Assembly (NCBI GenBank): GCA_003614675.1
Contig: ML002350.1
Span: 1 to 39,536 of the forward strand
From: Dimargaris cristalligena
Taxonomy: Eukaryota
DNA: 39,536 nucleotides
Reading direction: 5' to 3'
This document shows positions 2,596-2,808 of this stretch, one piece after another. The notes under the pieces are model-generated. The model was not told where the DNA came from, made no database searches, and saw only the letters and a list, made by a program, of their open reading frames with translations. A program made the position numbers and the translations under genes. Numbering within the stretch: position 1 is the stretch's first letter; each line of letters starts with the position of its first letter.

Positions 2596-2808
2596 ATGCA
2601 ACTCCTGTCTGCCACCACTGTCATTCTGGCCGCCATTGCCACTATTGGCATGGTTCATGCTAACCCCGCTCAACCGGCCGCTTCCCAGCAGCTCACTAAG
2701 CGCGGGTTTCGCTCGGTTGCAGTCAAGGCCGGTGCTGCGGGAGCCGGTTGGTATCTGGCCAAAAAGGGCATTGAGGCATACCGCAAGAGCCGCGCTACCA
2801 AGAAATAA
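2596..2808 (+). CDS. Small secreted prepro-peptide (70 aa): signal peptide, propeptide ending in KR, 34-aa cationic mature peptide
   Basis: Internal ATG of the listed ORF 2338..2808 in good context (ACCATGC). Translation: MQLLSATTVILAAIATIGMVHA / NPAQPAASQQLTKR / GFRSVAVKAGAAGAGWYLAKKGIEAYRKSRATKK. GC-rich coding-like composition begins at this ATG, while the upstream part of the ORF looks like promoter/UTR. Confidence 0.85.
   Translation: MQLLSATTVILAAIATIGMVHANPAQPAASQQLTKRGFRSVAVKAGAAGAGWYLAKKGIEAYRKSRATKK

Follow-up and report, generated by a model that had tools for sequence, protein, structure and literature searches.

A previously undescribed family of predicted kexin-processed, single-core cationic prepropeptides in the mycoparasitic fungus Dimargaris cristalligena

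The precursor gene and its surroundings

Contig ML002350.1 of assembly GCA_003614675.1 of Dimargaris cristalligena comprises 39,536 nucleotides, and this whole stretch is referred to here as the window. On its forward strand, positions 2596..2808 contain an open reading frame (ORF) that runs from an ATG at 2596 to a TAA at 2806-2808 and encodes a prepropeptide of 70 residues, labeled P0001 (MQLLSATTVILAAIATIGMVHANPAQPAASQQLTKRGFRSVAVKAGAAGAGWYLAKKGIEAYRKSRATKK). To judge from the sequence, 2596..2808 is a real gene of D. cristalligena. It has five paralogues, and the six genes, all for single-core prepropeptides, together form a previously undescribed family in this species. D. cristalligena belongs to the Dimargaritales (Kickxellomycotina, Zoopagomycota), lives as a haustorial mycoparasite and was sequenced from cultures with Cokeromyces recurvatus (PMC6784888, PMC9866270).

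The precursor can be divided into three predicted segments, all encoded on the forward strand. Residues 1-22 (MQLLSATTVILAAIATIGMVHA; 2596..2661) form a predicted signal peptide, with a mean Kyte-Doolittle hydropathy (KD) of 2.66 over its core VILAAIATIGMV and V-H-A at positions -3 to -1. From the V-H-A rule alone we infer cleavage after residue 22. The putative pro-segment of 14 residues (23-36; NPAQPAASQQLTKR; 2662..2703) is rich in Pro, Gln, Ala and Ser, and in it NPAQPAASQQ precedes the kexin motif L-T-K-R (residues 33-36; 2692-2703). Throughout the family, L33 and K35 of this motif do not vary, and five of the six distinct cores have R36. The predicted released peptide (residues 37-70; GFRSVAVKAGAAGAGWYLAKKGIEAYRKSRATKK; 2704..2805) consists of a Gly/Ala-rich head (37-55) and a Lys/Arg-rich tail (56-70). 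Its 34 residues include 6 Lys, 3 Arg and 1 Glu, giving a net charge of +8, as well as one Trp and no Cys; Gly and Ala make up 38%, with a run AGAAGAG. A preliminary description of this DNA had already proposed a 70-residue ORF with these elements, and every one of them is present on translation.

The flanks of the gene contain candidate expression signals. The only TATAAA in 2201-2600 lies within TATAAATA (2380..2387), which is likely a TATA box and is separated from the ATG at 2596 by 209 nt. The pyrimidine-rich leader in between (2388..2595) is the probable 5′ untranslated region, and no ATG occurs in 2379-2595. ATG-free stretches of the same length are found in 35 of 787 windows of the scaffold and in 685 of 5000 shuffles of the G-poor leader segment; as evidence, the ATG-free leader is modest. 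The context of the start codon is CAACCATGC. Downstream, AATAAA at 3022..3027, 214 nt past the stop, may serve as polyadenylation signal.

Codon usage was scored as a log-likelihood against the 7,968-codon ORF of a non-ribosomal peptide synthetase (NRPS) in the same window. The two alternative sense frames of the region 2596-2805 score -0.210 and -0.328 per codon, and the antisense frames give 0.086, -0.145 and -0.513. The frame of P0001 scores 0.236, which is above the in-frame mean of the NRPS ORF itself (0.179 +/- 0.053 in windows of 70 codons). The list of ORFs also holds an in-frame ORF of 156 residues that starts at the ATG at 2338, which the preliminary description had called spurious. 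That judgment is upheld by the codon score of its extra part (2338-2595), which at 0.021 per codon is under the lowest in-frame NRPS window (0.042), and by the position of the TATA box inside it. Similarity to the paralogues starts at, or slightly ahead of, 2596.

Two annotation sets call the P0001 ORF, in both cases as a hypothetical protein. The 70-residue form is annotated exactly in a second assembly, on a contig of 45,809 bases. The public model for the present scaffold, RKP38585.1 (P0002; hypothetical protein BJ085DRAFT_36324), has 78 residues and adds MAVAYLTT ahead of Met1. As deduced from the comparison of protein and DNA, it does so by joining 2344 to 2579, so that its alternative start (2338..2578) consists of an exon ATGGCCG (2338-2344) and a GT...AG intron of 234 nt (2345-2578). 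We prefer the unspliced model of 70 residues, because this intron would hold the sole TATAAA of the region and because the genome paper, in its main text, mentions neither a transcriptome nor RNA-seq (PMC6784888). The mature peptide is identical under both models.

The peptide gene lies 6.2 kb upstream of the NRPS ORF (9021-32927, forward strand), which is unbroken over its 7,968 codons and encodes a giant enzyme. A Pfam search with this ORF in two pieces returned 5 AMP-binding, 10 Condensation and 5 PP-binding stretches, and the ORF fits the NRPS expansion reported for D. cristalligena (PMC6784888). Further downstream, a forward-strand ORF (35146-39534) runs past the end of the scaffold and comprises at least 1,463 codons. 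Of its residues, only those from about 1261 to 1354 match the transporter families FUSC_2, FUSC and ALMT (E 2e-10 to 5.6e-07), and its first approximately 1,260 residues have no Pfam match at E ≤ 0.1. Its product may export the NRPS product, with the reservation that this large N-terminal region is without Pfam match. Convergent with the peptide gene is an ORF of 378 residues on the reverse strand (3457-4593), for which Pfam gave no match at E ≤ 0.1. Its exact sequence is absent from the protein collection, so public models must differ from it. The left end of the scaffold (1-2000) is AT-rich, with a GC content of 0.335 against 0.42-0.55 elsewhere, and contains short ORFs only.

Six paralogous cores and their kexin motif

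While a word-based search returned P0001 itself as the sole match, an exhaustive HMMER scan of 1,835,955,588 representatives found five proteins at E ≤ 0.001, the query included. Three of these are the paralogues P0003 (E 5.2e-13), P0004 (7.5e-06) and P0005 (6.1e-05). P0006, a protein of 577 residues (E 3.4e-04), was dropped as a relative, since it matches residues 40-61 solely by its repeated VKEGALNAGWVLEA-type units. Profile A1, made from four proteins, gave six matches among 8000 scored candidates, all of them from D. cristalligena, and added P0010 and P0011. Profile A3, made from trimmed cores, gave seven matches at E ≤ 10 among 6362 candidates, again all from this species, and added P0012. 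The members are drawn from the annotation sets BJ085DRAFT and H4R33. A tblastn search with the family found no second copy in the window. Literature searches on Dimargaris, Zoopagomycota and zygomycete secretomes found no description of the family, with the proviso that supplementary tables of PMC6784888, PMC9866270 and PMC9391592 may list the genes among secreted proteins. Likewise, no paper was found that names the locus tag, accession or UniProt id of the P0001 gene.

Five of the six cores have the predicted cleavage motif intact. P0001 carries L-T-K-R ahead of its mature peptide of 34 residues. In P0004, L-Q-K-R precedes FFRSNAARLGAIVTGGAVGSLVGPVGTVVGAGAGLYVAKKGIEKYREKKQLKENEKAAKKASKK (64 residues, net +10). 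The motif L-A-K-R is found in P0005 (also P0008 and P0009) before GFRSAAVKVGGAYLGYKAAGAGIKMLRENKKN (32 residues, net +6), in P0010 (also P0011) before GLRSGAVKMAGAYLGYKAAGAGIDKLRETKKD (32 residues, net +4) and in P0012 before GVVTKLAIGGAALAAATAYGTYRVGKKIFGSSKPDSRK (38 residues, net +6). P0003 (also P0007) is divergent, with L-T-K-C before GFRSFAAKAAAAGAG and then a long acidic extension; this copy may be decaying or changing function.

The paralogues are 40-59% identical, and every indel between them is in frame. These indels comprise 1 residue in the signal, 2 and 2 residues in the pro-segment, and an insertion of 19 and an extension of 11 residues in P0004. Substitutions are conservative (V/A, K/R, F/L, E/K/D). 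Between P0001 and P0004, 11 of 21 residues are identical in the signal, 9 of 14 in the pro-segment and 20 of 34 in the mature part. Invariant positions in A3 are L3, A6, L11, T16, H21, S30, Q32, L33, K35, R39, S40, A42, A48 and G51. All six cores have a hydrophobic signal core (KD12 2.23-3.00), followed by V/A-H-A/S before the pro-segment, with an invariant His at -2 according to the rule-based assignment. The preliminary description had envisaged a paralogue family with a conserved signal and KR site and a variable mature part. Such a family, with five paralogues beside P0001, does exist. The conserved part of the expectation stood, with K-R in five of six cores. The variable part did not, as P0012 alone combines a P0001-like signal and pro-segment with a clearly different mature peptide.

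Two members deserve separate mention. Relative to P0001, P0004 (KAJ1986837.1) contains a Gly/Val-rich insertion of 19 residues (IVTGGAVGSLVGPVGTVVG). With this insertion its head, which has a KD19 of 1.65 and four GxxxG motifs, would be long and hydrophobic enough to span a membrane, making P0004 a natural 'gain of hydrophobic length' variant that is useful for mechanism testing. P0005, P0008 and P0009 are near-identical and differ in one or two residues of the signal peptide; P0005 and P0009 lie on two separate contigs of one annotation set. They are either alleles of a non-haploid genome or the result of very recent duplication. The ploidy of D. cristalligena is discussed in PMC6784888.

The sequence around the predicted cleavage site agrees with what is known about kexins. 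Kex2 cuts almost always after Arg (P1), favors Lys at P2 and Leu or another aliphatic residue at P4, and accepts any residue at P3 (PMC8528282). Five of the six family cores show this preferred pattern, with Leu at P4, Lys at P2 and Arg at P1. Their L-x-K-R follows Pro/Ala/Gln/Ser-rich sequence, and Gly comes next in five of the six cores. The Kex2-processed pro-domain (K2PP) effectors, in which a signal peptide is followed by a disordered N-terminal pro-domain with KR, RR or LxxR at its end and then by the mature protein, offer a template for this arrangement (PMC8528282). P0001 has the same elements: a signal peptide, assigned by rule, and L-T-K-R at residues 33-36 of 70, thus in the first half of the precursor and after disorder-promoting residues. 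Consistent with a disordered pro-segment, the predicted local distance difference test (pLDDT) of the AlphaFold2 (AF2) model is below 50 at residues 29-35. Since the signal, the His at -2 and L-x-K-R are common to the family, kexin-processed secretion of P0001 can be called well supported as a prediction, and the prepropeptide layout with a kexin site put forward in the preliminary description is supported by the family and its five L-x-K-R cores.

Processing might go one step further. In candidalysin, the cut by Kex2 is followed by trimming of the C-terminal basic residue by Kex1 (PMC5784256), and P0001 and P0004 might lose their terminal Lys-Lys in the same way. No KR or RR is found inside the five intact mature peptides, where all dibasic sites are of the KK or RK type. 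As these sites carry Lys at P1, clipping at such sites, a possibility raised in the preliminary description, is not supported for Kex2 itself, while other proteases could act there.

Membrane activity and the alternatives

The five intact mature peptides are Cys-free, have a net charge of +4 to +10 and contain 31-38% Gly and Ala. Their Gly/Ala-rich heads are uncharged to weakly charged (net +1 to +2), with a KD of 0.36 to 1.33 and one Lys or Arg near position 5-8, and carry Tyr or Trp at the end. Their tails are strongly cationic (KD -0.99 to -1.48). In P0001, the N-terminal half has net +2 and KD 0.42, the C-terminal half net +6 and KD -1.26, and the head ends with W52-Y53. The conserved feature is this block order of a weakly hydrophobic head and a cationic tail; in all six cores a Gly/Ala-rich N-terminal half precedes a tail rich in Lys.

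From these properties a mechanism can be proposed. The 22-residue signal would direct the precursor into the endoplasmic reticulum, and a late-Golgi kexin of the Kex2 type would cut after L33-T-K-R36 and thereby remove the disordered pro-segment of 14 residues. A Kex1-type carboxypeptidase may then take off the terminal Lys-Lys, so that a Cys-free peptide of 32-34 residues would be secreted. Its polycationic tail would bind to anionic surfaces, Trp and Tyr would act as interfacial anchor, and the small-residue helix of the head would insert into the membrane. Mucoralean host cells at the haustorium, or else competing microbes, could be targeted, and their membrane would be disturbed or crossed. 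The ORF, its coding signature, the family and the conserved signal, L-x-K-R motif and block design are seen directly in the sequences. Signal cleavage, processing by kexin and Kex1, secretion, helix formation and all membrane activity are steps that we infer. We favor the reading that P0001 is one of six paralogous single-core prepropeptides from which a cationic peptide is released that binds membranes and disturbs or crosses them, and we assign it a probability of roughly 45%. Membrane activity is a reasonable expectation, weakened by the missing amphipathic signature, and a membrane-lytic role of mature P0001 is supported only in part.

Linear antimicrobial peptides (AMPs) of the classical kind have a net positive charge, no disulfides and 12-50 residues. 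Mature P0001, with net +8, no Cys and 34 residues, falls within these limits. Several observations weigh against the favored reading, however. The best 18-residue hydrophobic moment of P0001 is 0.41, a value reached by 776 of 2000 shuffles, and the moments of the other four peptides are reached by 707, 540, 691 and 247 of 2000. The helical moment of the whole mature P0001 is 0.07. Thus, although charge, length and absence of Cys fit, the moment does not rise above that of shuffled sequences, and mature P0001 does not qualify as an amphipathic helix of the classical kind. On the Eisenberg scale, its mean hydrophobicity is -0.10, a poor value for a lytic peptide. Small-xxx-small spacing in P0001 is no more frequent than in shuffled sequences (2662 of 5000 reach its level); among the peptides, P0004 alone shows enrichment (260 of 5000). 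The AF2 model predicts a single helix over residues 30-69 with a pLDDT of 62-75, but it is of low confidence, with a mean pLDDT of 60.5, a predicted template modelling score of 0.26 and an alignment of 6 rows. Avoidance of [KR]R within the mature peptides is not significant, as 43-66% of shuffles are without such a site (product 0.09 over four non-independent peptides).

The family itself adds to these doubts. The HMMER scan and profiles A1 and A3 found no relatives outside D. cristalligena, so long-term conservation cannot be shown. Missing matches in other Dimargaritales may reflect small ORFs that are unannotated; the presence of these fungi in the libraries was not verified. With the K-C site and acidic extension of P0003 and P0007, the family may be partly decaying. 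Kinship with moricins was considered and rejected: the top match of the whole protein in the ESM Atlas is a moricin-like cluster, at a score of 0.83 that is below the evidence level of the tool. Mature P0001 alone gave no usable match there, and the Pfam family Moricin (PF06451) matched none of P0001, P0003, P0004, P0005 and P0010 at E ≤ 10, nor P0012 at E ≤ 0.001.

Several other explanations cover part of the same evidence. The peptide could be a host-entering effector that, after release by kexin, crosses the host membrane without lysis and acts on nucleic acid, a mitochondrial or another anionic target within the cell, which we consider unlikely. Such a peptide would have the design of a 'primary amphipathic' cell-penetrating peptide with some resemblance to an organelle presequence, a likeness of mature P0001 that we assume here. 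The block design, the cationic tail, the low overall hydrophobicity and the lack of a significant amphipathic moment would suit this role, as would the absence of acidic residues from the first 23 mature positions and the high content of Ala, Arg, Ser, Lys and Gly. K2PP effectors share the signal-pro-LxKR layout (PMC8528282), and the producer is a biotrophic haustorial parasite. However, known K2PP effectors are folded proteins, unlike peptides of 34 residues, and a weak membrane-active peptide fits the same features equally well. It is less probable still that the product remains on the hyphae or spores of the parasite itself, as a surface or wall peptide that self-assembles via the Gly/Ala stretch and alters adhesion or wetting in a Rep1-like manner. 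In Ustilago maydis, the Rep1 repellents, which are released by Kex2, assemble into amyloid-like fibrils on the hyphae (PMC8528282). Kexin release, a length of 32-64 residues next to the 37 aa of the Rep1 peptides (PMC6339444), the run AGAAGAG and the existence of a gene family of similar peptides are compatible with this role. A long Lys-rich tail and a net charge of +4 to +10 disfavor fibril packing, though, the precursor carries one core rather than repeats, and AF2 gives a helix, at low confidence, instead of strands. Moreover, neither the HMMER scan nor the A1 and A3 profile searches found similarity to annotated repellents.

Two further explanations dispense with a released peptide. The precursor could yield a tiny type-I membrane protein, in which the Gly/Ala stretch is a transmembrane helix and the Lys tail a cytoplasmic, positive-inside anchor. 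For P0004 this is plausible: after Arg8 it has 30 uncharged residues, with a KD19 of 1.65, and then KKGIEKYREKK, and its residues 98-134 resemble families of N-terminal anchors in Pfam (ZapG-like E 0.027, UPF0154 0.15, Gly-zipper_Omp 0.44), albeit far under the cut-offs of 25-33.5 bits. P0012, with a KD19 of 1.33, also lends itself to it. It is not plausible for P0001, in which the longest uncharged run after mature Lys8 is 11 residues (KD19 0.67), nor for P0005 and P0010, which have Lys at mature positions 8 and 17 (KD19 0.79 and 0.67); with such values and Lys inside the stretch, the span is too short and too polar in all three. Besides, a conserved L-x-K-R pro-segment would be unexpected ahead of an ectodomain of 7 residues, and for the family at large we rate this explanation as improbable as a surface role. 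The least probable is a non-functional dispersed DNA repeat with a short ORF picked up by ab initio gene callers. It would agree with the annotation sets being apparently without RNA support (no RNA-seq mentions in the main text of PMC6784888), with the disagreement between pipelines about the upstream ends of the models, with the limitation of the family to one species and with the degenerate look of one copy. Frame-preserving indels and conservative substitutions at only 40-59% identity, a codon signal specific to the frame, and landmarks retained across the copies (a hydrophobic core, L-x-K-R, the His at -2 and a stop after the Lys-rich tail) make it very unlikely; the TATA box and the ATG-free leader are in place as well.

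Returning to the released membrane-active peptide, a more specific proposal is that the family represents a lineage-specific arsenal of ribosomally made, kexin-released, linear, Cys-free cationic peptides, with which the fungus breaches or enters cells of its mucoralean host at the haustorial interface. This is possible but doubtful. If true, the family would be the first of its kind from early-diverging fungi and would act beside the unusually large non-ribosomal peptide repertoire of D. cristalligena. It would represent an independently arisen fungal counterpart of the Gly/Ala/Lys-rich host-defence peptides of animals, and its block mechanism, with a small-residue head and a polycationic tail, would depart from the amphipathic-helix model. 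It would also provide an entry point to the question of how biotrophic mycoparasites cope with the membranes of their hosts. The six natural variants are synthesisable, range from 32 to 64 residues and include one with a hydrophobic insertion of 19 residues, which suits them for structure-activity work.

Comparison with known systems

To our knowledge, ribosomally made defence and attack peptides of fungi are almost all Cys-rich, with the polyprotein-derived candidalysin as the best-known linear exception. If the favored reading is true, the biology of linear cationic peptides released by kexin from single-core precursors would be extended to early-diverging fungi. Compared to candidalysin, which is strongly hydrophobic, mature P0001 has a mean hydrophobicity of -0.10 and net +8. 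Candidalysin, derived from Ece1p of Candida albicans, is likewise Cys-free, has approximately 31-34 residues and a basic C-terminus, and is released by Kex2 after Lys-Arg and processed by Kex1. However, Ece1p is a polyprotein of 271 aa with several Lys-Arg sites (PMC5784256), whereas P0001 has one site and one core. The whole-library HMMER scan found no homology between Ece1p and P0001.

Known families offer little by way of direct matches. Pfam returned no match for P0001, P0003, P0005, P0010 and P0012, and sub-threshold matches for P0004 alone. P0001 has no GxxxG motif, and P0004 reaches 11 bits against Gly-zipper_Omp, for which the cut-off is 25, so neither qualifies as Gly-zipper. A search of PDB sequences with the family profile gave matches at E 1.1 and 2.4 only, which were taken as chance.

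In layout, the family resembles K2PP effectors such as SnTox3, ToxA and SIX1/4/6, with which it has in common the signal, the short disordered pro-domain, L-x-K-R and one product (PMC8528282). P0001 would operate as a precursor of this type, and perhaps in the manner of candidalysin or of linear host-defence peptides of animals. In both cases the producer lives on another organism. The K2PP effectors are, however, folded proteins, most of them with Cys, from dikaryan plant pathogens, whereas the family described here consists of Cys-free cationic peptides of 32-64 residues from a zoopagomycote mycoparasite. HMMER, Pfam and PDB sequence searches found no sequence similarity between the two. KEX2-processed repeat proteins (KEPs), such as alpha-factor and Ustilago Rep1, are also kexin-cut secretory precursors, and the Rep1 peptides, at 37 aa, are of similar length. 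KEPs are defined by at least three repeats, i.e., at least four fragments after in silico cutting (PMC6339444), whereas P0001 has one KR, no RR and no internal repeat in its 70 residues. With its single KR site and single core, a precursor of this type would escape KEP pipelines. This points to a blind spot in genome mining: KEP searches need at least three repeats (PMC6339444), screens for effectors and AMPs favor Cys-rich proteins, and both would miss such genes.

A last comparison is with linear Gly/Ala/Lys-rich host-defence peptides of animals. Like P0001, these originate from prepropeptides, start with Gly after processing, are Cys-free, cationic and rich in small residues, and carry an aromatic residue about halfway along and a basic cluster at the C-terminus, a block order that is melittin-like. 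The block order of P0001 resembles that of bee melittin and of synthetic primary-amphipathic cell-penetrating peptides, and its Gly/Ala/Lys texture that of frog PGLa and bombinins and of insect moricins (PF06451). P0001 differs from these peptides by its lower hydrophobicity and by a moment that is not above that of shuffled sequences. The likeness would at most represent convergence, rather than kinship, between the peptides of a mycoparasitic fungus and those of animals.

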